A stretch of 32,000 bases of DNA, from NCBI GenBank assembly GCA_964640155.1, contig CAZXEQ010000001.1, positions 201,256-233,255 of the forward strand, in the 5' to 3' direction. The DNA comes from an uncultured bacterium (GTDB lineage Bacteria; Auribacterota; JACPWU01). Shown piece after piece: positions 9,589 through 32,000 of this stretch. How positions within the stretch are numbered: position 1 is the stretch's first letter; the number at the start of each line of letters is the position of its first letter. The notes under the pieces were generated by a model. It saw only the letters and a program-made list of their open reading frames with translations. It was not told where the DNA came from and did not search any database. Made by a program: the position numbers and the translations under genes.

Positions 9589-9661
9589 TTTTAAAACCCT
9601 CCCTTCATTAGTCATAAGCTATAAGTCGTAAGCAACAAGTCATGATAAGTTCTCTTAAGAC

Positions 9662-16254: not shown

Positions 16255-17454
16255 TTAAGACTCACCTTTTGACAAATAAAATCTATAACTCTTTTCAAGC
16301 TGTGCAAATTTCAGAATTTTATCTTTTAAATCATTAGGAATTTTTTCTAATTGAAGAGCTTCTGTGAGTTGATTTAGATTTAAATCTGAAAAATTCATCC
16401 ACTCACCACTTTCCTTCACAAGCTTTTCTAAATCGGATCGACGAGGATCATCTTTAAGAGGAAATTGATAGCCTTCTTTTATTTTCACACGCAATTTACA
16501 ATCACTCCCATAAATGATCTCAACCCCTTCTTTATCTGCATATTCAATAAGTGCCTTTTTTAATTTTTCTAACTCTTCATCCAAGGTCTTCACTGTTTTA
16601 TTCTTTTGCATTGAGAGCTCTGCATAACGATTCACCAAATTAACACCGGGTTCATTCAAATACTCATTAACGGACAGAGCTTCCACCTTTTGCTGATGTT
16701 TCATCAAAGGACAAATATCAATAAATTCACACCAAGGGCATATCGCGCCTTGTTTGGGAGGAAATTCTTTAGTTTGCTCAATTTCATGAATTAACTTTCT
16801 TGTGTCTTGGCGTAAAGCATCCAGTTCTTCAATACTTCTTTCTGAAACGAGATCTCGATCAAACGCCAAATAATGCCAAATCAGTCTTACTTTTTTGACA
16901 TCTGGCCAACGCTGCTGAATACCAATTTGATACAAAGCCAATTGTCTATCCTGATCTGCACTTTCTTGAGTCGGAAGAGATTGTCCAGTTTTATAATCAT
17001 GAATTTCAATAATCCCTTCTGAACCTTGCGAAATCCGATCAATATAACCAATAATGCGATATTCTCCTTTCTCATCCAACTCAACAAAAATTTGTTGTTC
17101 AAGACCTATTGTTCTATCTTGCTCAAAGGGATAGAATCTGCGGTAATAATCGCGAATACATTTTTCGCCCAGCACACGATAATTTTCAGATGTATAATCT
17201 TTTCTAATAATTTCAACATTCTCAGTCCAGTTTTTGCGCCAAGCATCATTATAAAAAGTCAAAAGGTCCCCCAAACTATCGACTTTGGTTACCTTCAAAT
17301 CTTTATAAAGTTTCTCAAGTGTTTCATGAACACGTTTGCCCACAAAAGCTTCGATCGTTTCTCGACCTAGTTTGATTTTATCAATGTAGCGGTATTTATA
17401 CTGGAGAGGACATGTCTCGTAAGTACTTAATTTGGAGTGAGAATAAATGGGCAT
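16255..17454 (-). CDS. PD-(D/E)XK nuclease with Cas4/AddB-type Fe-S cysteines, plus about 150-aa coiled-coil C-terminal extension
   Basis: C15 (YETCPLQY) plus CPWCEFIDIC form the four-Cys pattern of Cas4/AddB nucleases. Also GYIDR, EIHDYKTG (D/E-x-K) and QLALYQ (QxxxY). The start ATG shares one base with the phoU stop (TAATG at 17456-17452). Confidence 0.75.
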   Translation of the reverse strand: MPIYSHSKLSTYETCPLQYKYRYIDKIKLGRETIEAFVGKRVHETLEKLYKDLKVTKVDSLGDLLTFYNDAWRKNWTENVEIIRKDYTSENYRVLGEKCIRDYYRRFYPFEQDRTIGLEQQIFVELDEKGEYRIIGYIDRISQGSEGIIEIHDYKTGQSLPTQESADQDRQLALYQIGIQQRWPDVKKVRLIWHYLAFDRDLVSERSIEELDALRQDTRKLIHEIEQTKEFPPKQGAICPWCEFIDICPLMKHQQKVEALSVNEYLNEPGVNLVNRYAELSMQKNKTVKTLDEELEKLKKALIEYADKEGVEIIYGSDCKLRVKIKEGYQFPLKDDPRRSDLEKLVKESGEWMNFSDLNLNQLTEALQLEKIPNDLKDKILKFAQLEKSYRFYLSKGES

Positions 17455-18125
17455 TATTTCAACTTCTTTTCCTCAAGATGATGTTTGATGTTTTTACCTT
17501 GAACAAGATAAATCACATCTTCACCAATATTGGTTGCGTGATCCGCAATTCTCTCAATATGGCGTCCTATCAAAATCAAATCTACAGCCCGTGTGATGGC
17601 TGAAGAATTTTCAATCATGTAAGTCAAAAGTTCTCGAAAAATTTGGTCGTTTAAATTGTCAACTTCATCATCACTCTGACAAACCGTCCTTGCCAATTTC
17701 GCATCACGATTTACAAAAGCATCTAAACTATTTTTGACCATTTTTTGAGCCAAAGCCGCCATACGTGGAAGATCAATTAAGGGCTTCAGAAGTGGTTGTT
17801 TAAAGAGGTCTAGCGCACGTTCTGCAATATTGACAGCTTGATCTCCCATCCGTTCCAGATCATTCACAATTCTCATGACCATCGTAATAAATCTTAAATC
17901 CGATCCAGCAGGCTGATGCAAGGCTAGAAGTTTAAGACATGTTTCTTCAATCTCAACTTCCATCATATTAATGGCGTCATCTGAACGAATCACATCTTCT
18001 GTCAATACTTGATCACGATCCACCAGTCCTTTAACAGATCGACTGACCGCTTCTTCAACCAATCCCCCCATTTTCAAAAGTTCTTGGCTTAATTGCTTTA
18101 ACTCTTCATCAAAATGTCGTTCCAT
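17454..18125 (-). CDS. phoU: Phosphate signalling/transport accessory protein PhoU
   Basis: 223 aa, two-repeat PhoU architecture (DDAINMMEVEIEE..., NDLERMGDQAVNIAE / DDEVDNLNDQIFRE..., RHIERIADHATNIGE), in the last canonical pst operon position. Confidence 0.9.
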   Translation of the reverse strand: MERHFDEELKQLSQELLKMGGLVEEAVSRSVKGLVDRDQVLTEDVIRSDDAINMMEVEIEETCLKLLALHQPAGSDLRFITMVMRIVNDLERMGDQAVNIAERALDLFKQPLLKPLIDLPRMAALAQKMVKNSLDAFVNRDAKLARTVCQSDDEVDNLNDQIFRELLTYMIENSSAITRAVDLILIGRHIERIADHATNIGEDVIYLVQGKNIKHHLEEKKLK

Positions 18126-18154
18126 ATATGATATTCATCTCCCCTTATATGTTT

Positions 18155-18910
18155 TCATCCAAATCTTCCAGAAATATAGTCATTTGTCCTTTGATCCAAC
18201 GGATTGGTGAAAATCTTGCTCGTTTCACCAAATTCAACAAGCTCTCCTAACAGCATAAAACCCGCTTCATCAGAAACTCTAGCAGCTTGTTGCATATTAT
18301 GCGTAACGATCACTATAGTGTAGCGCTCTTTAAGATCAAACATCAACTCCTCAATTTTAGCAGTCGCCACTGGATCCAAAGCAGAGCAAGGTTCATCCAT
18401 CAATACAACATCCGGCTCAACCGCAAGAACTCTGGCAATGCAAAGACGTTGCTGTTGTTCCCCTGACAAATTTAATGCAGAACGATTCAAACGATCCTTA
18501 AGCACATCCCATAATTCCACAGATCGCAAGCAATTCTCTACCACTTCTTCTACATCTCTAACTTTTGTTAATTGATGAATACGCAGACCATAAGCAACAT
18601 TTTCAAAAATAGAAATAGGGAAAGGATTAGGTCTTTGAAAAACCATTCCAATTCTCTTTCTCAGAGAAAGTAAATCAACATTGGTCCCATAAATATTCTG
18701 ATCATCAATCAGAACTTCTCCTTCAACACGCACACCATCAATCGTATCATTCATGCGATTAAAAACTCTAAGTAATGTTGATTTTCCGCATCCTGAAGGA
18801 CCAATCATGGCTGTAATAGATTGTGCACGAATTTCCATATGAACACCTTTAAGCGCATGGAAAGAACCGTAATGTAAATTAAGATTTTTTACAGAAATTT
18901 TTGAGTTCAT
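18155..18910 (-). CDS. pstB: Phosphate ABC transporter ATPase PstB (canonical motifs)
   Basis: [10 protein letters not shown]-loop [34 protein letters not shown]-loop [13 protein letters not shown], and C-terminal DYISGRFG. Start set at the ATG at 18910 ([15 protein letters not shown]). The ORF-track extension to 19057 would overlap the upstream pstB. Confidence 0.9.
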
Positions 18911-18983
18911 TTTTAAATCATCATTGTTTTTTAAATTTTGGGTCTTATCTTTTTTAACTGGCAACCCGCCAACGGCTAACTGA

Positions 18984-19742
18984 TTAACCGAATCTTCCTG
19001 TAATATATTCTCCCGTTCGAACATCTGCAGGATTTGTAAAGATCTTATCTGTTTCATCTACTTCCACCAAATCTCCCATCAAAAAGAACGCGACACGATC
19101 CCCCACTCGAGCTGCTTGTTTGGTATTATTTGTTACTAATACCAGGGTATAAAATTTTTTCAACTCTAACATGGCTTCTTCTACTTTTCCTGTAGAAATA
19201 GGATCCAGGCCAGAACACGGCTCATCAAAAAGAATAACATCCGGTTCTACAGCCAATGTTCTTGCAATGCAAAGCCGCTGTTGTTGTCCCCCCGATAGCT
19301 GAAAAGCAGAATTTTGGAGACGATCTTTTACTTCTTCCCATAAATAAGAAGCTTCCAAACTTTTTTGAACAATCTCCTGCAAGGCTTTTTTAGATTTAAT
19401 GCCATGCATACGAGGACCATAGGCTACATTGTCAAAAATAGACATGGGCAACGGAATGGGTAAAGCAAAAACCATTCCTATTTTTTTTCTTAAAAAAGCA
19501 ACATCTATGTCTTGAATATTTTGACCATCCAGCAAAATTTTTCCTTCTGTTCGTATTTTTAAACCTTCGTTTAAACGATTAAGAGATCTTAAAAAAGAGG
19601 TTTTCCCACTATTCGAAGGACCGATCACACCTAAAATCTCATTTTTTAAAATATGCAGGTTTAAGTTCTTTAAGGCATGAACATTGCCATAAGAAACATT
19701 AAGATCTTCTATTTTAATTTTAATTTTGTTCTCGTTTGTCAT
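18984..19742 (-). CDS. pstB: PstB paralog with degenerate Q-loop and H-loop
   Basis: [32 protein letters not shown] and EYITGRFG are conserved. The Q-loop reads [10 protein letters not shown] (Gln to Ala) and the H-loop reads [13 protein letters not shown] (His to Asn). Start set at the ATG at 19742 ([19 protein letters not shown]); no clear SD. Confidence 0.85.
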
Positions 19743-19770
19743 AAATTTTAATATTTTTTTAAATTTTTTA

Positions 19771-19808
19771 CTGACGACCGACAACTGACGACTGAAGACT
19801 GACAACTG
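19771..19808. repeat. Heptanucleotide tandem repeat, 5.4 copies of CTGACRA
   Basis: ctgacga ccgacaa ctgacga ctgaaga ctgacaa ctg, read directly. It lies in the 73-nt pstA-pstB spacer. Confidence 0.7.
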
Positions 19809-19815
19809 TTTTTAA

Positions 19816-20664
19816 CTACCATTGTTTTCTTTTTCGAAATCGAGTCCGCATAATCACTGCAAAAAGATTAAGTACAAGCACAATAACAACTAGAACCAAG
19901 GCAGTTCCATATTGAAGATGGGGCTTAACATTGGGAACTTGTGTTGATAAAACATATAAATGATAAGGAAGAACCATTACCTGATCAAAAATAGAATGGG
20001 GTAGTTTTGGTAGATAAAAAGCTGCAACCGTAAAAAGGATTGGAGCTGTTTCTCCTGCCGCACGAGACAGACCTAAAACAGTTCCAGTCATAATACCAGG
20101 TAAAGCATTTGGAAGAACCGTATGTCGAATGGTCTGCCAACGTGTAGCACCTAAAGATAAACTTGCCTCTCGAAAAGATTGAGGAACACTGCTTAAAGCC
20201 TCTTTTGTAGAAGTGATAATGACAGGAAGCGTCATAATTCCAAGTGTAAGAGCTCCAGCCAAAATGGAAGCCCCAAATTTAAGAAAAATAACAAATAGGC
20301 CTAACCCAAAAAGCCCAAAAACAATCGATGGAACACCTGCAAGATTCACAATAGCTACTTCAATCAGACGCTTCAAAGCATTATCCTTGGCATATTCAAC
20401 CAAAAAAATGGCAGCAAATACACCTAAGGGAACAGCAAAAACCATTGTCACTGAAACCAAATAAAGAGTCCCGACAATGGCTGGAAAAATACCTCCCGCT
20501 CGCATTCCCATTCTCGGAACAGCACTTAAGAATTCCCAGCTGATCGCAGGAGCACCTCGCATTATAATTAAGGTAACAATCATTAAAACAGGCACAATGA
20601 TAATGACGGTGCATAACAATGTAAGAAAATAGGCAATCCATTGAGTATGACGAGGCGAGATCAT
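19816..20664 (-). CDS. pstA: Phosphate ABC transporter permease PstA
   Basis: 282-aa polytopic permease with the EAA-type loop (EASLSLGATRWQTIRHTVLPNALPGIMTG), in the second permease position of pstSCAB. Confidence 0.9.
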   Translation of the reverse strand: MISPRHTQWIAYFLTLLCTVIIIVPVLMIVTLIIMRGAPAISWEFLSAVPRMGMRAGGIFPAIVGTLYLVSVTMVFAVPLGVFAAIFLVEYAKDNALKRLIEVAIVNLAGVPSIVFGLFGLGLFVIFLKFGASILAGALTLGIMTLPVIITSTKEALSSVPQSFREASLSLGATRWQTIRHTVLPNALPGIMTGTVLGLSRAAGETAPILFTVAAFYLPKLPHSIFDQVMVLPYHLYVLSTQVPNVKPHLQYGTALVLVVIVLVLNLFAVIMRTRFRKRKQW

Positions 20665-20739
20665 CCCACCACCTCCTTATTCGCCAGAGACAAACCTCGA
20701 AGAGGTTGTTTACTTTGTGAACTCAAGGAGGTGGTGGGA
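20664..20739 (-). promoter_or_regulatory. Intercistronic hairpin sequestering the pstA Shine-Dalgarno sequence and start codon
   Basis: Perfect 15-bp inverted repeat: 20664-20678 pairs with 20725-20739. The mRNA reads UGA-U-UCCCACCACCUCCUU...AAGGAGGUGGUGGGA-UG. There is an inner hairpin AACCUC-UUC-GAGGUU. The element fills the whole pstC-pstA spacer. Confidence 0.6.
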
Positions 20740-20740
20740 A

Positions 20741-21640
20741 TCATTTTTTTCTCCGATGTAAAAAGAAATCAGCCAATAAATTGACAGCAAAAGTGATGAG
20801 GAATAAAACAATTCCTATTGCAAACAAAGCATCATAATGCGAACTACCTTGTACAGCCTCTCCCATTTCAGCAGCAATCGTAGCCGTCATTGTTCTTGCT
20901 GGATCAAAAAAGCTTTTAGGAAAAATAGCCGCATTACCTGTAATCATCATAACAGCCATGGTTTCTCCAATCACACGTCCAATCCCCAACATTACTCCAG
21001 CAAGAATTCCCGTTGAAGAAGCAGGAAGAATCACACGATAAATAGTTTGCCATCGTGTCGCACCTAAAGCCAATGAACCATCTCTATAACTTTTAGGAAC
21101 CGTGTTTAAGGCATCTTCAATAATGCTCACAATGGTTGGAATAGCCATAAAAGCAAGCATAATAGACCCTGTCAGAACTGTCAGTCCACTTCGCAAACCA
21201 AAAAGCTGTTTTACCAAAGGGACTAAAGTCACTAAACCAATAAATCCTAAAACAACACTTGGAATTGCTGCGAGAAGTTCCACGCCTGCTTTAAGATAGT
21301 CCCGCAATCCCTTAGGGACTATTTCACCAATAAAAATGGCACACCCCAGTCCCAAAGGAACAGAAATAAGGACAGCACCTAAAGTCACCCACAAAGATCC
21401 CATCAATAAAGGGAAAACACCAAATTTTGGAGGATAAGATATGGGGTACCAAAGATGTCCTAAAAGGAAATCTTTTACAGAAGCTGCCTTAAAAAGCGAC
21501 ATTCCCTCTTTTAATAAAAAAATAAAAATTAAAATAACGAAAATAATCGAGGCAATGCCGCTTAATAAAATCAGTTTTTCAATGACAAGTTCAGATTTTC
21601 GAATTTTATTTTTCATCACAATCTTTGCATGATATGTCAA
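20741..21640 (-). CDS. pstC: Phosphate ABC transporter permease PstC
   Basis: 299-aa polytopic permease with the EAA-type loop (DGSLALGATRWQTIYRVILPASSTGILAG), immediately after pstS. The ORF-track start at 21640 is TTG; alternative ATG at 21616. Confidence 0.9.
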   Translation of the reverse strand: MTYHAKIVMKNKIRKSELVIEKLILLSGIASIIFVILIFIFLLKEGMSLFKAASVKDFLLGHLWYPISYPPKFGVFPLLMGSLWVTLGAVLISVPLGLGCAIFIGEIVPKGLRDYLKAGVELLAAIPSVVLGFIGLVTLVPLVKQLFGLRSGLTVLTGSIMLAFMAIPTIVSIIEDALNTVPKSYRDGSLALGATRWQTIYRVILPASSTGILAGVMLGIGRVIGETMAVMMITGNAAIFPKSFFDPARTMTATIAAEMGEAVQGSSHYDALFAIGIVLFLITFAVNLLADFFLHRRKK

Positions 21641-21648
21641 ACTTGAAT

Positions 21649-22506
21649 TTAGTTTTTATCCCCTGCTTTTAAAGGAACAAAATCCATTTCCTGTACAATT
21701 TTCTGACCTTCTGGGCTCAAAATAAAATCAATCAATGCTTTTACAGTTCCCTCAGACTCTTTAGGTGTATAGAGAAGCAATGATCTTGCGATTGGGTATT
21801 CCCCAGAAGAAGCTGTTTCAACAGAGGGCAACACAAAAGGTCCCTCAACTGTCTTAGAAACTCCTAAAGGCTTTTGCCGAGAAGACAAATATCCCAAGCC
21901 AAAATAACCAATGGCATCTGGGTTCTGAGCGATCTCTTCAGCAATCGCTTGGGAGGAAGGCAACATCAATACGGAAGGATGAAACTCCTCAGGACCTTTT
22001 TCATTTCCGCGACGCACCACATGCTCTAAAAAATAGACATGTGTTCCCGAATTACGTTCTCTAGAAAGAACAACGATAGGCCTATCCTCACCTCCGACTT
22101 CCTTCCAATTTTTGGTTTTGCTCGTGAAAATATCTGAGAGTTGATCAATAGAAAGTTGTGAGACTTTATTGTCAGGATGAACTGCCACGCTCAAGGCATC
22201 AATGCCTACGGCAAACTCTTTGACATCCCTGCCTTTAGCTTTTGCCTGTTCAAATTCCTCGGGTTTCATTCCTCTAGAACTTTGAGCAATATCACAGGTT
22301 CCATTAATTAATGCTGCGATACCTGTTCCCGATCCTCCTCCCGTCACTGCAATAGAAGTTTCTGAATGCTGCCCCATAAAAGCCTCTGCCCATGCTTGTC
22401 CAAGATTCACCATGGTGTCCGAGCCTTTAACTTGTATCATTCTTTCATCAGAAAAACTGGAAAAAGTGCATCCCCAAAAAAGAATAAATAAAAATAAGCG
22501 TTTCAT
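21649..22506 (-). CDS. pstS: Periplasmic phosphate-binding protein PstS
   Basis: Signal peptide MKRLFLFILFWGCTFSSFS. PstS-family motifs VKGSDTMVNL, GGGSGTGIAALINGTCDIAQSSR and SGTHVYF. Start at the ATG at 22506 with AGGAG 7 nt upstream. Confidence 0.9.
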   Translation of the reverse strand: MKRLFLFILFWGCTFSSFSDERMIQVKGSDTMVNLGQAWAEAFMGQHSETSIAVTGGGSGTGIAALINGTCDIAQSSRGMKPEEFEQAKAKGRDVKEFAVGIDALSVAVHPDNKVSQLSIDQLSDIFTSKTKNWKEVGGEDRPIVVLSRERNSGTHVYFLEHVVRRGNEKGPEEFHPSVLMLPSSQAIAEEIAQNPDAIGYFGLGYLSSRQKPLGVSKTVEGPFVLPSVETASSGEYPIARSLLLYTPKESEGTVKALIDFILSPEGQKIVQEMDFVPLKAGDKN

Positions 22507-22548
22507 TACAGTCTCCTTTTTAATCATTTTTTCAAAATCTTAATAAGC

Positions 22549-22588
22549 CTGTCACAATTAGAATATTGTTGTGTGACAAAATTGTGAC
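22549..22588 (-). promoter_or_regulatory. Candidate Pho-box-like operator upstream of pstS
   Basis: On the pstS-coding strand, GTCACAATTTTGTCACA gives two GTCACA hexamers 11 bp apart (22588-22583 and 22577-22572). A third, inverted copy (CTGTCACA) is on the plus strand at 22549-22556, 21 bp away. All lie 45-82 nt upstream of the pstS ATG and resemble the E. coli CTGTCAT-type Pho box. Confidence 0.45.
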
Positions 22589-22667
22589 TTTTTCGTTAAA
22601 GATCCGTAACAATGATAAAAAGTGAAGAAAAATAGAACAGAACTAGAATAAAGTACAAGCTTTTTGC

Positions 22668-23186
22668 TTAACCAATGAATACTTCAGGAGAGATTAATAG
22701 TTTTAAAATGCCTTTCGTCTGCGTCAACTGACTTAAATTACGTGGAATTTCTAAAATACAAAGACCTGCTTTAGCTAAATCAATTTCTAAATCTTCTTTC
22801 CCCAATAAAAAAGAAATGAGTCGACTCATGCTCGGTTCATGTCCTACTAGCAAACAGGATTGAACTTTTTTGCATTTACTTTCTTTTTGAAGAGAGAAAA
22901 AAAAGTTCAAAAATTCTTCGGGTATTCCGGAAGGAATCAAATCTTCTGAAACAACCATTGCTTCTTTTAACTTATAAGTTTTAGCAACCATCTTTGCAGT
23001 ATCAAAAGCTCTTGTATAAGGACTCGTAAGGATACAGTCAAAAGAAAAACCTAATCTTTTCATCTTTCGAGCTACTTTTTGAACTTCTTTTTTACCTTTT
23101 TTTGTTAAAGGTCTATCTGCATCAGACATCCCCTCATGAGATTCTGGATCTACAGCACGCCCATGTCTTAAGAAATAAAGTTCCAT
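22668..23186 (-). CDS. sixA: SixA-type histidine phosphatase (phosphohistidine phosphatase family)
   Basis: 172 aa. Catalytic RHG motif (LYFLRHGRAV), TSPYTRAFDTA, and second His in LLVGHEPSMS. Size and motif order match SixA. Confidence 0.75.
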   Translation of the reverse strand: MELYFLRHGRAVDPESHEGMSDADRPLTKKGKKEVQKVARKMKRLGFSFDCILTSPYTRAFDTAKMVAKTYKLKEAMVVSEDLIPSGIPEEFLNFFFSLQKESKCKKVQSCLLVGHEPSMSRLISFLLGKEDLEIDLAKAGLCILEIPRNLSQLTQTKGILKLLISPEVFIG

Positions 23187-23218
23187 AATTTTACCTTGAA
23201 ATATAATTTTTTAAGTAG

Positions 23219-23374
23219 AAAACCTCTCAAAAAGGTCTCAGTCATGTTTTTATAGTCCCCTTTATGGGGATGCAAGGCGCACGCAAGCGACTGCGGAACC
23301 CCGATGTAATACAATCGGGACGACAAAGAAGCGCAGCGGGCAACGCAGCAAATGAGCCTTTATTCAGAGGTTTT
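23219..23374. other. G+C-rich structured island bounded by about 17-bp inverted repeats (candidate ncRNA, processing element or MITE remnant)
   Basis: AAAACCTCTCAAAAAGG (23219-23235) faces CCTTTATTCAGAGGTTTT (23357-23374). The core holds local hairpins tcccc-tttat-gggga (23256-23270) and cccgat-gtaataca-atcggg (23300-23319). The core is visibly G+C-rich against AT-rich flanks and occupies the ppk-sixA spacer. Confidence 0.4.
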
Positions 23375-23377
23375 AAA

Positions 23378-25477
23378 TCAGATAGCTTTCGAAGCCTTTT
23401 GAGGTCTCAACTCCTTTGGAAGAGATTTTTTAAACATCTCCTCCTCTTCCACTACTCTTTTGCAAAGAAATTCTTGTACTCTAAATGTCTTATTTTGTTC
23501 TGATTTTAAACGTTCATACGAACCATCTGAACAAAGCCGCCATGATTTCACATTATCTTTAAAATATAAATTTAAAATTTCTAAGAGCTCTTTTTTATTT
23601 TGGCCTTCTATGGGAAACATAATTTCAAGACGACGATCTAGATTACGTGGCATCCAATCTGCACTAGCGAGATATAATTCGTCTTCACCCCCATTGGCAA
23701 AATAATACATACGGCTATGCTCAAGAAACATATCAACAATACTCACCACTTCTATATTTTCACTCAAACCCTTTACCCCTGGTTTAAGACAACAAATTCC
23801 TCGAATATTAAGCTTTATTTTCACACCTGCTTGAGAAGCGCGATAAAGTGCTTCTATAATTTTAGAATCCACCAGAGAATTCATCTTTGCCATAATACAC
23901 CCTGGTTTTTCTTTCGAACTTCTCATGGCTTCACGCATAATCAAACGGATCAAGCGATTGCGCAAGGTATAAGGGGCCACCTCTATTTTAGACCAAACCA
24001 GAGGTTGAGAATAACCCGTGATCATATTGAAAAAACCAGAAATATCTCTCGCAAAACTTTCATCACTGGTAAAAAAACCAATATCAGAATAAAGTTTGGC
24101 TGTTTTTTCATTATAATTTCCAGTTGAAAGATGAACATAACGCCTAATTCCTTCAGGTTCACGTCTAACCACTAAACATGCTTTGCCATGTGTCTTTAGT
24201 CCAGCCACACCATAAAGCACAGTCGCCCCGACTTTTTCAAGTTGGCGTGCCCATTCAATATTTTTTTCTTCATCAAATCTTGCCTTTAATTCGACCAAGA
24301 CCGTCACTTGTTTTCCATTCTCTGCTGCTTTTTCAAGAGACGAGATAATGCTAGAGTCCTGTCCAGATCGGTAAAGCGTCTGCTTAATTGCAAGGACATC
24401 AGGATCTTGAGCAGCTGTTTCTAAGAAACGATTCACACTTGCAAAAGAGTGATAAGGTAAAAGCGTAATGACATTTTTTTCTTTTAATAACTTCCAAATA
24501 TCATCCACGTCTTGAAAATCAGGGAGTATTCGTGGCTCCCAAGCAGGCCGTTTTAAAGCATCAAATCCTGGCTGAAAAGCCAATTGCGAAATGGCCTTTA
24601 AGTCCATCCACGTATTCACTTCATAAAATTTTTGATCTGTAACCTTAAATCTATTTTTTACAAAATCTAAAAGATGTTTCGAGAGTTTAGTTTCTAAACG
24701 AACAATGGGTGCTTGACGACGCATTCGAAGAGCCTCTGCCATTACTTTCAAGAAGTCTTCATCCTTCTCTTCATCTAATGTCATTTCAGCCCCTCTTGTG
24801 AGGCGAATAACACCCTGATCTACAATCTCATATCCAAGAAAAAGATCTTTTGCAAAAAGAGCTAAAACATCTTCTAAAAGAATAAATCGATATGCATCAG
24901 AACTTCGAGGCAAAGCAATCAGACGTGAAAAATTTGAAGGAACTTCAACAAGCGCATATTTCAAACGACCTTGTTTTTGAATATCCGAAAGAGCAAACAA
25001 AACATGCAATTTCAAAGAAACAAATGAAGGCAGAGGACTTTCCTCTTGAACTGCAATGGGAGTCAATACAGGCAATAATTCTTTTTCAAAAAATCTTTTG
25101 AGATAATCCATCTCCGAATTCTGTAGCATTTGAGGTTCCACACGGACAATACCACTTTTCTCAAGCTCCGGAACAAGCACTTTCATAAAATAATCATCGC
25201 GCTTTACAACAAGAAGCCGGGTCTTTTCATCAACGAGAGGAATTGTTTCTGAACCTGATTCATAGAGACTTGCCACACGCACCATGAAAAATTCATCTAG
25301 ATTAGAACTCACAATACCTAAAAATTTCAACCGTTCTAAAAGTGGATTGGTTTCATCCATGGCTTCGGCTAAAACCCTTGCCTGAAATTCCAACAAAGAA
25401 AGCTCTCGATCAAAAAACCGATCTTTCATCACATCAACCATGGCGGATACCTCTGTTTCAATAAGACTATTGCTCAT
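23378..25477 (-). CDS. ppk: Polyphosphate kinase 1
   Basis: 699 aa. N-terminal FDRELSLLEFQARVL, the segment YGVAGLKTHGKACLVVRRE...HLSTGNYNEKTAKLYSD carrying the presumed autophosphorylated His, and two PLD-like C-terminal domains. Confidence 0.95.
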   Translation of the reverse strand: MSNSLIETEVSAMVDVMKDRFFDRELSLLEFQARVLAEAMDETNPLLERLKFLGIVSSNLDEFFMVRVASLYESGSETIPLVDEKTRLLVVKRDDYFMKVLVPELEKSGIVRVEPQMLQNSEMDYLKRFFEKELLPVLTPIAVQEESPLPSFVSLKLHVLFALSDIQKQGRLKYALVEVPSNFSRLIALPRSSDAYRFILLEDVLALFAKDLFLGYEIVDQGVIRLTRGAEMTLDEEKDEDFLKVMAEALRMRRQAPIVRLETKLSKHLLDFVKNRFKVTDQKFYEVNTWMDLKAISQLAFQPGFDALKRPAWEPRILPDFQDVDDIWKLLKEKNVITLLPYHSFASVNRFLETAAQDPDVLAIKQTLYRSGQDSSIISSLEKAAENGKQVTVLVELKARFDEEKNIEWARQLEKVGATVLYGVAGLKTHGKACLVVRREPEGIRRYVHLSTGNYNEKTAKLYSDIGFFTSDESFARDISGFFNMITGYSQPLVWSKIEVAPYTLRNRLIRLIMREAMRSSKEKPGCIMAKMNSLVDSKIIEALYRASQAGVKIKLNIRGICCLKPGVKGLSENIEVVSIVDMFLEHSRMYYFANGGEDELYLASADWMPRNLDRRLEIMFPIEGQNKKELLEILNLYFKDNVKSWRLCSDGSYERLKSEQNKTFRVQEFLCKRVVEEEEMFKKSLPKELRPQKASKAI

Positions 25478-25523
25478 AATTTCTATATCTCAATCTACGA
25501 ACTACTATCACGCGAAGTACAAA

Positions 25524-27107
25524 TTACTGTTTCTGGGGTGTTCCCTGCTTCAAAACAATCGACATTCCAAAAACATCTGAAAATAAATCACTCTTTTCAA
25601 GCAAGGATTGTCTTTCTAAAGATAAATCCCCCACCTCATCTAAAACCCAAAGTTGACAATGATCATTTTGTCTTACAAATGTAAAATCACGAATTTTCTG
25701 CTGATGCACACGATCCAAAGCATCAGTAACCCTTAAAATAGCAGCTAGTTTAGAAACAATAGGACGATCTGATTTGGGTAGGGACATATAAGGAACATGT
25801 GTTGTTTGTGGTGCAGAACGTCGATGATAGCGTACCACATTCGCAACAATATCTTTGTCCACTTTACGCAATCCAAAAATTTCAGAAGCAGCCACCAAAT
25901 AGGCGCTGTGTTTATGATGTCCTGTGGCAGAAATATACATCCCAATATCATGCAAAAGAGAAGCTACTTCCAAAAGTAAACGTTCTCGAGAACCCAACCC
26001 ATGATCCTCTTTAAGACAGTCGAATAATTTCATGCTCAAGCTGGTCACACATAAAGCATGAGCTTCATCATACTTGTATTTTCGACCAAAACTTTTTGCC
26101 GAATTAGTAACTTGTCTAGAAAGATCTGTTCTCTTTAAACCCGAAAGTAATTGAGAAATTTCAAGCAAAAGCCCATCTCGAATACTTACCAGAGGGACAA
26201 TGATATTTTCAGATTTTGTTTCAGCCAAAAAATCTGCATAAATCAAAAGAGAAGGGTAAAACATTTCTGCTTCTTCATACGTCATTTGAAATTTTCCGAC
26301 CATTTCTTCAGGAGATAATTTTGACAAAGCCTTAATAAATTCCAAAAAATCTTTTTGCTTTAAAACAACAAAGCGCTCTTCAATTTTTTCAACGAGTTGG
26401 CGACAAACCAAGCGCATGTCACCTCCCATCGCAACAAAAGTATCCACATCGCCCAAGCTATATTCCCGACTGGCTTCCTCCGCTACCGTATGAACACTGC
26501 GCTTTAAAAGCCTCTGCATCACATTGGAATCCACTCTTCCCATGCCCACCTGTTCGGGCAAGCGTAAAGAACCAATAGGAAGAGCACGCGTTAATTTCAC
26601 CTCTCCTTTAGTCATTAAAATAATTTCGGTGTGCCCTGTTCCTACTTCAATAATTAAAACGTTCTTCTTCTCAAGATCAATTTTATCCTTCAACACATCT
26701 TCAACAACCATCAACTCTAAACGATTCTCTTCTGCATCTTCTAATATTTCAACATCGATACCTGCTCTGACAAAAACTTGATCCACAAAATTATCTCGAT
26801 TAGCAGCTTCACGAACAGCACTGGTTGCAATGGCATTAAACCGACGAACCCCATAACTTTCCATCATGACTTTATAATTTTTTAAAATATCTATACCTTC
26901 GCGAATTGCATCATTGCTGAGTCTGCCTGTTTTAAAAACATCTTTTCCAAAACGAACAGGCTTTTGCAAATTTTCCAAATGGCGCACAGGTGCTTTAGGG
27001 CCCACCTCTGCAATAACCATGCGAATAGCGCTGGAGCCAATGTCTATGACCGCTACGACTTCTTTTGAAATTGTTTGTTCAACCATCTTGCCCTTGTCAC
27101 AACCCAA
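25524..27107 (-). CDS. ppx: Exopolyphosphatase / guanosine pentaphosphate phosphohydrolase (Ppx/GppA) with C-terminal HD domain
   Basis: ASKHA-fold N-terminus (VIDIGSSAIRMVIAEV, IEVGTGHTEI) and HD domain (LLHDIGMYIS...GHHKHSAYL). The ORF-track start at 27107 is TTG; alternative ATG at 27086. Confidence 0.9.
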   Translation of the reverse strand: MGCDKGKMVEQTISKEVVAVIDIGSSAIRMVIAEVGPKAPVRHLENLQKPVRFGKDVFKTGRLSNDAIREGIDILKNYKVMMESYGVRRFNAIATSAVREAANRDNFVDQVFVRAGIDVEILEDAEENRLELMVVEDVLKDKIDLEKKNVLIIEVGTGHTEIILMTKGEVKLTRALPIGSLRLPEQVGMGRVDSNVMQRLLKRSVHTVAEEASREYSLGDVDTFVAMGGDMRLVCRQLVEKIEERFVVLKQKDFLEFIKALSKLSPEEMVGKFQMTYEEAEMFYPSLLIYADFLAETKSENIIVPLVSIRDGLLLEISQLLSGLKRTDLSRQVTNSAKSFGRKYKYDEAHALCVTSLSMKLFDCLKEDHGLGSRERLLLEVASLLHDIGMYISATGHHKHSAYLVAASEIFGLRKVDKDIVANVVRYHRRSAPQTTHVPYMSLPKSDRPIVSKLAAILRVTDALDRVHQQKIRDFTFVRQNDHCQLWVLDEVGDLSLERQSLLEKSDLFSDVFGMSIVLKQGTPQKQ

Positions 27108-27110
27108 TAT

Positions 27111-28082
27111 TTACATTTTTTGAAAGATCAAATGTGCTGCACCAAAAATAATCGCATTATCACCTAACTGCGCAGGAACAACTTTTACAGCCTTTAAAAG
27201 TTCGCCCATGGTATGTTCTGCCATTGCAGCTTTAGCTTCTCTTAGAATTAATTCCGGCATGGCCTCGACGACTCCTCCCCCTAAAACAATTAAATCGGGA
27301 TTGAGCAAATTCACAATATTAGCCATGGTTATTCCAACTAATTGGGCTTTGGATCGAATGAGTCTTTCAATTGAACGATCTCCTGCTTTAATCGCTTTAG
27401 CAAACGAACCACTTCTCATTTCAGAAAAAGAACCTTGAGTTTCTTTCAAAAGAGCTGGAGCTTGCTGCTTTGCAATAAGCGCAGAAGCATCGGCTGCAAT
27501 TGCAAGTCGTCCCGCCATGGCTTCCAAACATCCTCTTAAACCACAGCCACACCAAGGTCCCATGGGATCCATTAAAACATGTCCGACTTCTCCTGCAGCC
27601 CCAATAGCCCCTCGATAAAGTTTGCCATTAAAAATAAAAGCTCCCCCAATGCCCGTCCCCATAAAAATTCCGGCCACATTAGAATGGCCAACAGCAGCAC
27701 CTAGGCAATATTCGCCATAAAGACCGGTGTTGACATCATTTTCTACAACCACTTTTACATGAAGTTTTTTGCGAAGTTTTTCGGCTAGAGAAATCCCTTT
27801 TAAAAAAGGAATATTGGGAGATGAGAGAATCACACCATGATCATTGATTAAACCTGGACATCCAATACCAATTCCCTCAATTTCTTTTAAACTGACTTCA
27901 GACTCACTTAGAACTTCTTCAATACCTTCAACCAATCGTTCAAAGAAATACTTTTCACCTTCTTCTACTTTGGTACGAAATTTTATTTTGTTTATTAAAT
28001 GCTCGCCTTTCATCAAGGCAATCAGCATTTTAGTTCCACCCAAATCGATTCCTAAAGCATATTTCTTTTTAGAAGTAGCCAT
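27111..28082 (-). CDS. ROK-family sugar kinase (glucokinase-like)
   Basis: GIDLGGTKMLIAL phosphate-1 motif, GTGIGGAFIFNG, and ROK zinc motif GHVLMDPMGPWCGCGLRGCLEA. Start ATG preceded by GGGGAG. Confidence 0.85.
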   Translation of the reverse strand: MATSKKKYALGIDLGGTKMLIALMKGEHLINKIKFRTKVEEGEKYFFERLVEGIEEVLSESEVSLKEIEGIGIGCPGLINDHGVILSSPNIPFLKGISLAEKLRKKLHVKVVVENDVNTGLYGEYCLGAAVGHSNVAGIFMGTGIGGAFIFNGKLYRGAIGAAGEVGHVLMDPMGPWCGCGLRGCLEAMAGRLAIAADASALIAKQQAPALLKETQGSFSEMRSGSFAKAIKAGDRSIERLIRSKAQLVGITMANIVNLLNPDLIVLGGGVVEAMPELILREAKAAMAEHTMGELLKAVKVVPAQLGDNAIIFGAAHLIFQKM

Positions 28083-28191
28083 TTTCTCCCCTCAAATGAA
28101 CGTAAAATTCTATCATGAGAAATGTTTAATGGAATGAAATTATTAGAGAGAAGAATTAATAAATCTTAAGATTAATTGAGAAAAGAAAAAA

Positions 28192-31100
28192 CTACGCCGC
28201 CCTGTCAAAAATAGGCGTAGGAGCAGGTAAAACGTGAGTCACAGGAGGAAGATCTGCAGGTTTCATTCGGTCTTTGCGAGAACGAGGTTGCGCAGTTCTA
28301 ACAGGAGTGATTTTATCAACATCTGATCCCCCTTTGAAGGCCCTCGCTTCTACCCCAATAATAGCACCATTGGGTCCAATCCAGGTATCATATCCGCCAC
28401 GTGGAGCAGATGGTTGGGCTCCAGAAAACCATCCACAGGCTCTCGCAAAAATTCTCCAACGCTCTGAAGGCATCACGTCTACCCCAACCATAGGACTGAA
28501 CTCTCCATCTGTAAATTGATAATAACCACTGGTTGAAATCCTCAGCCAAGAAGCTGCATTCAAAGCCGCTTCCCAACGCAAAATCCCTGTTTCGCTGTAC
28601 GGCAAATAACTGCTCCAATATCTTCCCCCGGATATAGCAGCATTGAAACGAGGGCTTTCAAATCGAAGTTGTCCTAATTGAGCATGCGCCAGTGGATTTG
28701 CAAATTCAGTTTCTGCAAGTGCAAAAATCCCAAGTCGAGTTTGCCCTATCGGAATCCAAAAACCTGCTGCTGCATTCAGAGTCAAATAAGAATAAAGATT
28801 ATACCATCTCCTCACGAGAGGATACTCTCTTCCATCCGGATCCAAACGATCAGAACGTGTATATTCAAACGGATCTACATAAGGATCATAAACCAATCTA
28901 CCTTCTCCAGAAATACTCCACTGAAAAGGGCCCCAAATATTTTGAAGACCATATCCTAAATTTCCAATGACACCGAAATTTTGTCGAGGTGTCAGCATGC
29001 CACTTGCACTTGGAGTCAAATAAGCACTCCATGAGCCATCTCGTGTGAGTGAAAATGGGATATGAGTTGAAAAGCTTAATAAGCCCCATCGCCGCAAAAA
29101 TACGCTTACTCTAGAATCTGGATTAGAAGGATTTGGATTGGATGTAAAAAGCCGTCCTTCAGAAGAAAGACTGAGCATAAAAGGTCGCCCGCCCAAATAC
29201 ACAAAACCTGTAGCACTTGCATTTCTAAACCAAAAACCTGGATCTGTTGTCCATGCATAATTGCCAAGTGAAGTATCTCTACGATCTTGTGGAGTACCTG
29301 CAAAATGGCCACTGGCATTCAAAGCCAAACGCCCTCGAGCAAGGGATTGCATATTAATAGCATCACTCAAACTTTCTTCTTCTTGGCCATTTACAATCTG
29401 CACAGTTCCAACTCTCATCCAAATGTCTTGAAAACTTCTATCTAAAGAAACCCTTCCACCTCTTTCAGATTCATAAAAGATAGCATTCGCTGTATTAAAA
29501 TTTGCATCGCGACTTGTATAAATACGATATTTGAGAGCTCCTGCAGGCAAAGGTCTTAAGTTTAAAATATATTCCGTTCCATTTATCCAAAGAGAGGTCA
29601 CAACAGAAGTTGAAGTAGGAATAAGTGTCGGAGTCGCAGTTGTTCTATCAGATTGAGTCCGAGCAGACGCAACTGTAGGTTCTGGAATAGGTAATTCTGC
29701 TGGCGTACTTAAAATCTCTCCTCCACTCTCTCCTCGTCCCGCAATCACTCTAACACGACGAACAACACGTGGATTGATTTCAAAAGATAAAGCTTCAGCA
29801 GCATTGACCCTGCCTAATACAGTCCATCCACCATTCGTAGCACTTGAATCATCGTTAGAATTTGAATTTCCGCTCACTTCATAAAAGAGGGCATCTCTCA
29901 CCGAAGTCCATGTGATACGACGTGTTTGAGCATTAAAATCAAGTCCTGTAGGAGATTGCGGGGCTGGGGGTACATTAAACGTCACGGGCAAACGAGAAGG
30001 CCTGGACCATCGTCCTATTCGACGTCCTTCTAAATTAAATAATCCCCTTCTTAGAAAATGATGATAGCGACTATTCGAAAGCCAGACTTGATAAGTCTCT
30101 GCTGACAATTGATATCGCGCAGTGTGATCACTAGGAAAATTTTCTGTAGGACTTGTCTCTATTACCAAAACTTGATTTGGATTCGTATTAGGAAGAATAT
30201 GATACAATGCGTATCCTTGAGCCACACATATCACTGGAGCACCCCTCAAACGCTCTACTACAAAAAGGTCGTTTACAATTTTGTCTCCATTGTTATCAAG
30301 TTCAAAACTTCCATCTACTTCCCTTGAGTAACACACATCCGGGAATTGAGGTGTTTGAGCATCTCTAACAGCATCTCTATTAATGACTGATGCAGCAGGA
30401 GCAACAGCAGGCGAAACTGCTGGAACATCTCCCCCGCGTGCCTCCTCTTCAGTAAAACTCATGCTGCCGTCGGTGGAGCCAGATGAAAGTGCTGGTTGAG
30501 CAACAACAGATTGGGGTGGCACCACCACACTAGGTTGTATGGGAGCAGGTGCAACACTTGCATCAGTGACTTGTGCTACAGCACCTGAATCCGATGTTAC
30601 TACAGCAGGAATTGATGCGCTTGCATCCGCCACTGTCAATGTGGTCCCCGCGTCAGGCGTAGCCACTATTGCCGCAACACCTGCGTCTAAAGCAGGTGGA
30701 ACTAGTGAACTCGATGCACCAGTGCTAGGAAGACGCCGAATACTTCCTCTAGATATATCGATTAAATTAAAACTACTCTGAATGCGACTATCGGCATCTC
30801 CACGAACAGCGAAAATACGTATGAAATTCACATTGTTCTGCTCTACTACAAAACGAATAGAAGTTTGCCCTTGCACTGGAAACTCTGTTGTCAGAATATT
30901 CCATGAGCGACTCCCTGTCGTCGCATATTCAACCACATAGCGAAGGCCTGGAACAACATCCCACTCTAATGTACGTGTCGCAGCATCATAACCCAAATTT
31001 TCAGGTCGAGGAGGAGCTTGTATCGTTATATCTAATTCAAAAGCAGGCCCTCTCACTCTACTTTCAACCGGCCCATTTCCATTATAAGGCAATACTTGAA

Positions 31101-31959
31101 CCCTATGTGCTCCGACTCTCAAGGAGCTTATAGTATAAGTTGTATGAGGTGCAGATACCTCACCTACAAGTACCCACTGTTCATTTTGTGATGTGACAGG
31201 ATTACGAGTAAGATCAAAGCGTCTGATCTCATATCCAGTCACACCGTCCACCGCAGGCCAAGACAAAGTGTAGGTTGAATCATTAAACGTAGGAGACGAA
31301 GCTAATGCCGCAGGAGCTTCGGGAACATTGAATTCTGCCGGCAAAGCATATGAATTTGTCCAATTTCCAATTGGAGTGATTTCGCCTTCCGTTAAAACTC
31401 TCTGACCAAAACGATATTGTAAGTATCGATGTCCACGACTCCGTATCAACCATTGACCTTCTCCCCCTCGCGTAAAAACATATTGTTGGGGACGATCATT
31501 GGGGGGAAAATCGATAGGGTTACTATGCGGGCTTGTTTGAACAAGGAGAACAAGCTCTGCACCTTCGGCGGTGCGCTGACGATTCCATTCAGCTTCAGGA
31601 AGAGAAGGCCTTAAAAGATAGCCTTGCGTAATAGGCATCTGGTCTTGATTCAAAGGACGAACTGCATGTCTGTGCGCTGGTTGTGCCATCGCTCCTGTCG
31701 CAGCTAATCCCAAAACCATTGCTGTTGCAAAAGCAAAAGCCCTTGCCTGGAAGCTTGCTCCTCTCATGATGTCTGATTTATATTCACTGATGGTTCTAAA
31801 GAAGCGTGAAATGAGCGGCGGATTTTCTGAAAAAGCCTGTTCTTTTAATTTCAAAAATTCTGTTTCTTCCAATAAACTCTGATCGAAAGAATTTAAATTC
31901 CCTTGAGTCGCTGACCTTTCATCAATCACAAAACCATAAATATTTCCTAAAATTGTCAT
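28192..31959 (-). CDS. Large secreted/outer-membrane protein: duplicated module plus FN3-like repeats, A/V/P/S linker, C-terminal beta-barrel-like region and basic tail
   Basis: Uninterrupted 1,255-codon ORF. Hydrophobic segment FAFATAMVLGLAATGAMA-QP. FN3-like signatures LSWPAVDGVTGYEIRR, LEWDVVPGLRYVVEY and ITWTSVRDALFYEVS. Aromatic/small alternation over aa ~875-1208, ending VEARAF. Start uncertain between M1 (31959) and M65 (31767); neither has a clear SD. Confidence 0.8.
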   Translation of the reverse strand: MTILGNIYGFVIDERSATQGNLNSFDQSLLEETEFLKLKEQAFSENPPLISRFFRTISEYKSDIMRGASFQARAFAFATAMVLGLAATGAMAQPAHRHAVRPLNQDQMPITQGYLLRPSLPEAEWNRQRTAEGAELVLLVQTSPHSNPIDFPPNDRPQQYVFTRGGEGQWLIRSRGHRYLQYRFGQRVLTEGEITPIGNWTNSYALPAEFNVPEAPAALASSPTFNDSTYTLSWPAVDGVTGYEIRRFDLTRNPVTSQNEQWVLVGEVSAPHTTYTISSLRVGAHRVQVLPYNGNGPVESRVRGPAFELDITIQAPPRPENLGYDAATRTLEWDVVPGLRYVVEYATTGSRSWNILTTEFPVQGQTSIRFVVEQNNVNFIRIFAVRGDADSRIQSSFNLIDISRGSIRRLPSTGASSSLVPPALDAGVAAIVATPDAGTTLTVADASASIPAVVTSDSGAVAQVTDASVAPAPIQPSVVVPPQSVVAQPALSSGSTDGSMSFTEEEARGGDVPAVSPAVAPAASVINRDAVRDAQTPQFPDVCYSREVDGSFELDNNGDKIVNDLFVVERLRGAPVICVAQGYALYHILPNTNPNQVLVIETSPTENFPSDHTARYQLSAETYQVWLSNSRYHHFLRRGLFNLEGRRIGRWSRPSRLPVTFNVPPAPQSPTGLDFNAQTRRITWTSVRDALFYEVSGNSNSNDDSSATNGGWTVLGRVNAAEALSFEINPRVVRRVRVIAGRGESGGEILSTPAELPIPEPTVASARTQSDRTTATPTLIPTSTSVVTSLWINGTEYILNLRPLPAGALKYRIYTSRDANFNTANAIFYESERGGRVSLDRSFQDIWMRVGTVQIVNGQEEESLSDAINMQSLARGRLALNASGHFAGTPQDRRDTSLGNYAWTTDPGFWFRNASATGFVYLGGRPFMLSLSSEGRLFTSNPNPSNPDSRVSVFLRRWGLLSFSTHIPFSLTRDGSWSAYLTPSASGMLTPRQNFGVIGNLGYGLQNIWGPFQWSISGEGRLVYDPYVDPFEYTRSDRLDPDGREYPLVRRWYNLYSYLTLNAAAGFWIPIGQTRLGIFALAETEFANPLAHAQLGQLRFESPRFNAAISGGRYWSSYLPYSETGILRWEAALNAASWLRISTSGYYQFTDGEFSPMVGVDVMPSERWRIFARACGWFSGAQPSAPRGGYDTWIGPNGAIIGVEARAFKGGSDVDKITPVRTAQPRSRKDRMKPADLPPVTHVLPAPTPIFDRAA

Positions 31960-32000
31960 CTGGACAAAGAGTTGAGAACCAATTTTTTCAACATTTAAAT

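Follow-up and report, generated by a model that had tools for sequence, protein, structure and literature searches.

A lysine desert in the C-terminal two-thirds of an exported envelope protein from an uncultured Auribacterota bacterium

The gene and its full-length product

The subject of this analysis is a gene at the far end of a 32,000-nucleotide stretch of DNA, hereafter the window, from an uncultured bacterium of the phylum Auribacterota (lineage JACPWU01; assembly GCA_964640155.1, contig CAZXEQ010000001.1, forward-strand positions 201,256 to 233,255). The portion of the gene that lies within the window is an open reading frame (ORF) on the minus strand (28192..31959), which translates to 1,255 amino acids (aa) with 102 Arg and 9 Lys, the latter at positions 37, 39, 61, 560, 810, 1209, 1216, 1229 and 1233; an earlier note, written from the DNA alone, had the Lys count right and misnumbered the first two positions as 36 and 38. 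The window end cuts the gene, there being no in-frame stop codon at 31960-32000, and the complete protein (P0001), which is 100% identical across the window ORF, has 1,881 aa. The gene extends ~1.84 kb past the window, where its true start, a Sec-type signal peptide and a conserved N-terminal domain (the N-domain) are found. The 626 aa thereby added to the window ORF are rich in Lys and open with the signal peptide MKIKNRTLSCFLALCLILSSFQMGGA|ETS, which, as read by eye, is kept in the ortholog described below (P0002) and across the N-domain family, and which provides the N-terminal export signal expected of an outer-membrane protein. From residue 1 to residue ~690 of the full-length protein there are 4-14 Lys per 100 aa (~9% Lys). 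The end of this Lys-rich half that falls inside the window (31768..32000, minus strand; full-length aa 614-690) contains no upstream in-frame stop.

The gene encodes an exported envelope protein with a lysine desert in its C-terminal two-thirds. Its earlier description as compositionally unlike its neighbors is correct for those C-terminal two-thirds and incorrect for the first 690 aa, which are as rich in Lys as the neighboring proteins. The doubt, also voiced in the earlier note, that the ORF might be an assembly chimera has been removed: a Logan contig from a Sequence Read Archive run holds the whole gene and shows not one mismatch to the window in 8,733 bp, and the ortholog is built along identical lines.

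Lysine is nearly absent from the C-terminal region

The core of the desert (28336..31677, minus strand; window-ORF aa 95-1208, the numbering used from here on unless stated otherwise) is 1,114 aa long, of which 2 are Lys and 92 are Arg, and makes up 59% of the 1,881-aa protein. The runs without any Lys measure 498, 398 and 249 aa. A lysine desert has been defined as a Lys-free stretch of at least 150 aa or, alternatively, of at least 50% of the protein (PMC10665810), and by the first of these measures (Szulc et al. 2023, PMC10665810) the protein belongs to this class, its longest run being 498 aa against the 150-aa criterion. The window ORF as a whole is 0.7% Lys, compared with 2.8-11.0% in the 22 other window ORFs of at least 150 aa, in agreement with the earlier remark that the neighboring proteins are richer in this residue. 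The scarcity of Lys in the core has a binomial probability of ~3e-32 at the neighbors' 7% Lys, and of ~2e-30 given the neighbors' Lys/(Lys+Arg) ratio of 0.56. In 1.17 Mb of related loci, which contain 366 ORFs of 300 aa or more, only the genes for P0001 and P0002 show 300-aa windows with zero Lys; no other Lys-poor stretch came near the length of this desert, and the next-lowest were short or lay in secreted beta-helix-like proteins, which are low in Lys and also low in Arg.

This last property bears on adaptation to alkaline surroundings, in which exposed Lys would be swapped for Arg, a residue that stays charged at high external pH. Such Lys-to-Arg replacement occurs in alkaline-adapted secreted enzymes, and in the desert core it is Arg that carries the positive charge. 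Nevertheless, we regard this explanation as very improbable, as the N-domain, which bears the signal peptide, and the periplasmic PstS are both rich in Lys, other secreted-looking proteins of related loci are poor in Arg as well as in Lys, and there is no sign of an alkaline habitat.

The composition of the gene at the DNA level separates the amino acid from the nucleotide sequence that encodes it. The G+C content of the gene (0.443) is above that of its flanks, as had been noted, yet the excess is confined to codon positions 1 and 2. At the second position G+C is 0.512 against 0.28-0.41 in the neighbors; at the third position (GC3) it is 0.276, within the neighbors' range of 0.22-0.39, and it stays flat along the full-length gene. 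Arg codon usage is likewise that of the neighbors. Gly, Ala, Arg and Pro are raised and Ile, Met and Lys lowered in the product, with Arg at 8.3% and Trp at 2.3%, versus 5.5% and 0.7% in the neighboring proteins. The codons AAA and AAG make up 0.18% of triplets in the reading frame; read in either alternative frame, the same DNA has 4.2-4.3%. This frame-specific depletion implies that it is the amino acid that is avoided, and not a DNA motif or a base composition. Shunning of A-runs or of AAA in the DNA is thereby excluded, the depletion being seen in the reading frame alone. Translation independent of tRNA-Lys is ruled out by the 62 Lys codons that lie upstream in the same ORF.

Divergence of the desert and selection against lysine

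The best match to the N-domain (locus L002, 70% identical) lies in a Candidatus Auribacterota metagenome-assembled genome (MAG), and this genome encodes the ortholog P0002. In an exhaustive HMMER search of 1.84 billion representative proteins, P0002 was the only homolog of the Lys-free part; a word-indexed protein database likewise returned only the protein itself and one ortholog, and no further homolog was found in Joint Genome Institute metagenome contigs, either by a protein-derived scan or with a DNA pattern for VQVL.Y.G..PVESRVRGP. The sole known homolog keeps the desert, with 1 Lys in ~800 aa at 34% identity, and it repeats the overall pattern of a Lys-rich N-terminal part, followed by the Lys desert and then by a Lys-bearing tail.

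The divergence of the two proteins differs greatly from one part of the locus to another. Seven flanking proteins are 91-97% identical between the genomes, with nonsynonymous divergence (dN) of 0.015-0.05, synonymous divergence (dS) of 0.57-1.48 and dN/dS of 0.01-0.08, and the N-domain is 71% identical (dN 0.18, dS 0.79, dN/dS 0.23). The desert, 34% identical over its whole length, has dN 0.64, a dS comparable to that of the flanks (0.99) and dN/dS 0.65 in the part comprising module 1 and the FN3-like units (described below), and dN 0.88, a near-saturated dS of 1.85 and dN/dS 0.48 in its C-terminal part. It is among the fastest-evolving stretches of the locus, and these values indicate that it evolves almost neutrally or under diversifying selection. 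Within it, a single one of the 73 Arg substitutions between the orthologs is to or from Lys, whereas in the N-domain 12 of 23 are. In the alignment of the desert 523 columns vary, and at these the residues Phe, Tyr, Ile and Asn, which have AT-rich codons, occur at 0.85-1.6 times their frequency in the neighbors, and Lys at 0.10 times. The mutational equilibrium of the genome favors A-rich codons, yet both lineages have remained Lys-free.

These observations also decide the standing of a compositional legacy, according to which the C-terminal part came from a high-GC donor and was fused to a resident gene, its synonymous sites alone having since adjusted. The enrichment in Gly, Ala, Arg and Pro and the depletion in Ile, Met and Lys are what such an origin would leave behind, an internal Ala-rich, signal-like segment resembles the start of a once-separate exported protein, and Actinobacteria are the commonest home of lysine deserts (PMC10665810). 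However, GC3 and Arg codon usage are indistinguishable from those of the neighbors, no donor-like homolog was found among the 1.84 billion representative proteins, and nonsynonymous divergence since the species split (dN 0.64-0.88) has been accompanied by one Arg-Lys exchange in 73, with Phe, Tyr, Ile and Asn at normal levels at variable sites and Lys alone missing. A legacy of this kind is quite improbable, because the rarity of Arg-Lys exchanges and of Lys at variable columns argues instead for purifying selection against Lys. Our sequence comparisons thus show that lysine is specifically counter-selected in the desert and that the exclusion operates at the amino-acid level. The suggestion in the earlier note that GC drift alone is unlikely to account for the avoidance of Lys is well supported by the neighbor-like GC3, the frame-specific loss of AAA and AAG and the dearth of Lys at variable columns.

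Architecture and boundaries of the Lys-free region

The desert begins exactly at an internal, signal-peptide-like hydrophobic segment (31684..31767, minus strand; MRGASFQARAFAFATAMVLGLAATGAMA, then QP), where the number of Lys per 100 aa falls to zero, and its far limit is the final strand predicted for the C-terminal region, directly after which Lys is found again. The hydrophobic segment, which in the ortholog reads WRGASLRARAFALTTAMAIGLTATGVMA followed by QQ, has a dN/dS of 0.15, versus 0.26 and 0.65 in its two flanks. It had been taken for a signal peptide if translation started at M65, or for a signal anchor if it started at M1. Neither proposal survives: M1 is internal to the 1,881-aa protein, and the ortholog has Trp at the position of M65 and no ATG, GTG or TTG ahead of the hydrophobic core. 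The segment is therefore internal. On the same grounds, separate translation of the Lys-free part from M65 was rejected.

A novel module of ~115 aa occurs twice behind this segment. Copy 1 (aa ~100-215; 31315..31662, minus strand; ...ELVLLVQTSPHSNP...FNVPEAP) is present in P0002, and gave no match in Pfam, NCBIfam or the PDB. Copy 2 (aa ~540-666; 29962..30342, minus strand; ...QVLVIETSPTENFP...FNVPPAP) lies in an insertion or duplication specific to this genome. The internal duplication, first recognized by inspection, is borne out by self-BLAST (32% identity over 137 aa, E = 3e-13). The second copy, its FN3 unit and the linker that precedes it are all missing from P0002, and the three together are therefore a lineage-specific insertion or duplication. 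This linker (aa 411-527; 30379..30729, minus strand), which is of low complexity, consists largely of Ala, Ser, Val, Pro, Thr and Asp, much as it had been described; it coincides with an alignment gap in P0002 and shows no tandem repeat at the DNA level.

The modules are followed by FN3-like units. Two of these (aa ~216-400; 30760..31314, minus strand) gave phmmer matches to P0003, P0004 and P0010 with E values of 1.6e-11 to 4e-5, and a third (aa ~667-745; 29725..29961, minus strand) matched P0005 over query positions 565-644 in a 1,191-aa numbering. In all, query positions 117-330 and 565-644 matched the FN3-repeat proteins P0003-P0012 at library-wide E values of 1.6e-11 to 1e-4; eight of these proteins were scanned, and all carry fn3 in Pfam (E 7.6e-15 to 4.6e-75). 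The FN3-like character that had been proposed for these units is thus supported by significant homology to confirmed member proteins. The units fall below the gathering score of the FN3 family (PF00041), as direct hmmscan returned no fn3 at E <= 1, and a five-unit FN3 profile searched against the PDB found only an 'Fn3-like protein' (3mpc, E = 0.57). A tentative fourth FN3/Ig-like unit (aa ~786-865; 29365..29604, minus strand) aligns to P0002 and has a W...L.L.P...YRI pattern; it had no independent family match. P0001 resembles bacterial FN3-repeat proteins (PF00041) in its three or more W...G..GY...Y units and in its significant phmmer matches to such proteins. It differs from them in that its units remain under the Pfam threshold, and the Lys/Arg balance of the matched FN3 proteins is not consistently skewed.

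The C-terminal region (aa ~875-1208; 28336..29337, minus strand), which ends in ...IIGVEARAF, is predicted with low confidence to form an outer-membrane beta-barrel. AlphaFold2, run with a two-sequence alignment, produced 16 long antiparallel strands (aa 910-1207) at a predicted local distance difference test score (pLDDT) of 38 and a predicted template modeling score (pTM) of 0.36; a single-sequence run on the C-terminal 392 aa gave a pLDDT of 31. The predicted strands alternate between hydrophobic and polar faces, and the Phe of the last strand is kept in P0002, though a 47-aa tail comes after it. The top 50 Foldseek matches in the PDB were all outer-membrane barrels (OmpG, BamA, BtuB and FhaC among them), and were weak (E >= 0.01, template modeling scores of ~0.2-0.4). 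Searches of Pfam and NCBIfam found neither the autotransporter (PF03797) nor the Omp85 (PF01103) translocator barrel, and Pfam, NCBIfam and PDB sequence searches with the window ORF placed it in no family. The barrel suggested in the earlier note is accordingly plausible, and the model in its favor is a low-confidence one.

The overall layout recalls type V secretion proteins, both classical (Va) and patatin-like (Vd), which likewise begin with a Sec signal and continue through an extensive modular region to a C-terminal barrel, here a predicted one, ending in a conserved Phe; if the low-confidence model is right, the 16 strands would match the Omp85-type barrel of type Vd. Unlike type V proteins, however, P0001 shows no sequence match to Autotransporter, Omp85 or POTRA, has a tail of 47-56 aa past the barrel, contains the internal signal-like segment and carries FN3-like units, rather than a beta-helix, in the passenger position.

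The tail itself (28195..28335, minus strand; stop codon 28192-28194) is 47 aa long and rich in Pro, Arg and Lys, and its 4 Lys were correctly described from the sequence. The P0002 tail has 4 Lys straight after the last strand and is otherwise weakly conserved. In principle, the Lys-free part could be a periplasm-spanning tether that crosses the peptidoglycan and evades capture by L,D-transpeptidases, the tail being the intended attachment site; Lpp and beta-barrel outer-membrane tethers are models for how such a tail could be attached to peptidoglycan. The reappearance of Lys solely in the tail, directly past the last barrel strand in both proteins, fits this idea, and the even number of strands in the model (16) would set both ends of the barrel on the periplasmic side. 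On the other hand, the Lys-rich N-domain would be periplasmic too, other periplasmic proteins encoded here, such as PstS, are rich in Lys, and the tail is poorly conserved. Overall, we find a tether improbable.

The N-domain family

The N-terminal ~690 aa matched the hypothetical proteins P0015-P0023 (E 5e-53 to 2e-18), and a genome scan confirmed 550 loci of this family, whose domain in P0001 is the Lys-rich stretch of ~560 aa headed by the Sec-type signal peptide. Almost all of the loci lie in MAGs of Candidatus Omnitrophota and Auribacterota, often in several copies per genome. P0001 belongs to this family by homology over ~500 aa that includes the motif [VI][LM][IV]TGGFHT, one of two invariant motifs of the N-domain, the other being ...FY..ALKRD.... 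The N-domain, searched singly or as a profile, had no sequence match in Pfam, NCBIfam or the PDB; its motifs (xxDxH...E...RD...GGFHTxG) may resemble those of the Tiki/TraB/ChaN superfamily. In most cases the N-domain opens proteins between 2,000 and more than 3,900 aa in length, which have signal-like N termini and distal clusters of transmembrane helices, in one instance with a SecA_DEAD domain.

In this respect the family is reminiscent of the giant Omnitrophota proteins of West-Roberts et al. (bioRxiv 10.1101/2023.11.21.568195), which share with P0001 a signal-like N terminus that leads into an N-terminal region lacking annotation. N-domain proteins reach more than 3,800 aa, with clusters of transmembrane helices. 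P0001 differs from these giants in being far shorter and in having an unrelated, Lys-free C-terminal part.

The C-terminal parts of ~60 paralogs and orthologs that share the N-domain contain 2.5-10.7% Lys. Because these other family members have ordinary amounts of Lys in their C-terminal parts, the desert is peculiar to the C-terminal module that P0001 and P0002 share. This distribution also weakens a self-protection mechanism acting in cis, in which the N-domain would be a Lys-directed protease or ligase and the chain tethered to it would be Lys-free to escape its attack, much as E3 ubiquitin ligases have lysine deserts and Lys-specific proteases resist autolysis. The desert does start right behind the N-domain and its linker, the invariant His, Arg and Gly-Gly-Phe-His-Thr motifs of the N-domain are suggestive of an enzyme, and lysine deserts that shield components of the ubiquitin system are on record (PMC10665810, PMC10169902). 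Yet the N-domain itself is 9% Lys, its ~60 relatives carry Lys in the chains behind the same domain, and no catalytic family emerged from Pfam, NCBIfam or PDB searches. We consider self-protection about as improbable as the tether.

Two N-domain proteins do have Lys-poor stretches of 300-500 aa shortly past the head domain, with 0-2 Lys per 100 aa (L061, plus-strand ORF, aa ~700-1200; L026, aa ~1000-1300). The L061 stretch, the only one of the two that was read, is Ala-rich, appears helical and has no sequence kinship with the P0001 desert.

Genomic setting of the gene

The desert gene lies in a phosphate-related neighborhood that is shared, in order and strand, with the sister genome: a response regulator gene, pstSCAB-phoU, the desert gene, a ROK kinase gene and ppx. 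In the window this series continues with ppk, a histidine phosphatase gene and a second pstSCAB-phoU operon. Phosphate-cluster synteny as a trait of the N-domain family was considered and rejected, since it is shared by the ortholog alone. No terminator-like hairpin was found in the 110-bp gap that separates the desert gene from the ROK kinase gene (window 28083-28191), and the desert gene may be co-transcribed with ROK-ppx-ppk.

This setting lends itself to an explanation in which Arg is positively needed and Lys is no hazard, the stalk and barrel binding phosphate, polyphosphate, extracellular DNA or glycans through Arg and aromatic residues. In both genomes the gene has pstSCAB-phoU on one side and ROK-ppx-ppk on the other, and a second pst operon is near; no terminator-like site separates it from the gene downstream, and Arg and Trp are enriched in its product relative to the neighboring proteins. 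Binding-site Arg, however, leaves the absence of Lys at ~520 fast-changing positions unexplained; the core has a net charge of approximately -9 (94 basic versus 103 acidic residues) and is no polycation, and the other N-domain family members lack the phosphate synteny. A need for Arg is thus an unlikely cause of the desert.

Two complete pstSCAB-phoU operons on the same strand (window 17454-28082, minus strand; L001 404-6080) bracket the desert gene, with a PhoB-like response regulator gene upstream of the pst arrangement, which is kept in the sister genome. Upstream of the true start, ~110 nt are ~97% identical between the two species (L001 6170-6315 / L002 9855-10000), despite the divergence of the flanking genes at synonymous sites (dS 0.6-1.5). 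This block contains a sigma-70-like promoter (TTGCTT, a 17-nt spacing, and TATAAT with an extended TG) and a conserved leader with a 19-bp hairpin and a U-rich 3' arm. The leader had no match in Rfam, and the block may be a regulatory leader or an attenuator.

A proposed lysine-directed hazard at the cell surface

We propose, with a probability of roughly 0.4, that the Lys-free part of the protein is surface-exposed and shielded, by its lack of Lys, from a lysine-directed hazard. It would be the outer-membrane-embedded and cell-surface-exposed portion of the molecule, with an FN3-type stalk and a 16-strand barrel anchor in a layout similar to that of type V autotransporters. Lysine in this position would be a liability, most plausibly by virtue of Lys-specific proteolysis, or of chemical or enzymatic modification directed at amines, in the extracellular milieu, and the fast divergence, duplication and indels of the region would fit a surface protein engaged in an arms race. 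The strongest clue is the pair of boundaries, since, if the model of the C-terminal region is taken as a guide, the desert starts at the internal signal-like helix and ends at the last barrel strand.

Several points weigh against this proposal. The topology assumed here is hypothetical, the barrel model is of low confidence (pLDDT 38), and the window ORF had no Pfam match to autotransporter, Omp85 or porin families. Were the entire N-terminal part displayed as a surface passenger, its Lys-rich head would be exposed as well, which weakens the argument from compartments. A barrel of 16 strands whose two ends both lie on the periplasmic side, and through whose lumen no segment is threaded, would keep the stalk periplasmic. 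The family of the Lys-free part consists of two members, making its conservation a single comparison, and the ranking of this protein as an outlier in Lys poverty covers the window ORFs and the 1.17 Mb of related loci.

A more specific idea, possible but doubtful in our judgment, is that the exclusion of Lys marks a physical boundary within one polypeptide, with the signal-like helix parting two zones: a Lys-tolerant periplasmic head and tail, and a Lys-intolerant outer-membrane and surface part. Were this correct, it would mean that a lysine-directed extracellular hazard has purged Lys from a hypervariable surface protein in a free-living anaerobe, and that a type V-like protein crosses the envelope with an unusual topology.

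Evasion of host ubiquitination by an intracellular bacterium, one of the causes first suggested for the desert, is extremely improbable, and together with compositional legacy and alkaline adaptation it is among the explanations that we disfavor. A double UvrA encoded in the window, which we take to be a Chlamydia-like trait, together with affiliation to the Planctomycetes-Verrucomicrobia-Chlamydiae (PVC) group, at first hinted at a chlamydia-like organism, and the Lys depletion of AB-toxin A chains has been ascribed to such evasion (PMC10665810). However, the nearest genome is a Candidatus Auribacterota MAG, and host ubiquitination is unlikely because the described members of this phylum have been inferred from their genomes to be free-living anaerobic fermenters (PMC9324843). 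In addition, related Omnitrophota associate with bacteria or archaea, which lack ubiquitin (10.1101/2023.11.21.568195), half of the same protein is rich in Lys, and the Lys-free part probably lies outside the cytoplasm.

Lysine deserts have been described previously in ubiquitin-proteasome components, in AB-toxin A chains and in actinobacterial proteomes (PMC10665810, PMC10169902). The desert of P0001 resembles these in being a long, conserved Lys-free region in which Arg is retained. It differs in being encoded by a PVC-group genome of ~38% GC, and in forming an exported, probably outer-membrane or surface part of a protein whose other half is Lys-rich; neither a ubiquitin nor a Pup system is known to bear on it. 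The desert thus falls within the published operational definition, yet it occurs without the ubiquitin, Pup or high-GC context of the known cases. Hitherto, lysine deserts have been put down to avoidance of ubiquitin or Pup or to a by-product of high GC content, and neither explanation fits here, because this is an AT-rich genome, the gene has native codon usage and the phylum is inferred to be free-living. When we searched the literature for bacterial surface proteins poor in Lys, all that came up concerned ubiquitin. The observation itself is robust and the evidence for selection is unusually clean, and the case comprises two sequences from uncultured bacteria and a low-confidence structural model.

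In effect, the two genomes offer a clean natural experiment, which shows that a bacterial envelope protein can be under strong selection against lysine as such. The selective agent, once found, could expose an unrecognized pressure at the cell surface, be it a protease, amine chemistry or peptidoglycan cross-linking. Moreover, P0001 joins the unannotated head domain of Omnitrophota-type giant proteins to a compact architecture that is experimentally tractable.

Other features of the window

The UvrA-like protein mentioned above is encoded at 9662-15121 on the minus strand. At 1,819 aa, it is about twice the usual length of UvrA and consists of duplicated UvrA modules, with two UvrA_inter stretches and P-loop matches at four positions. 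Two further ORFs on the minus strand (2148-2729 and 8902-9615) encode proteins of 193 and 237 aa that have no Pfam match and an ordinary Lys content.

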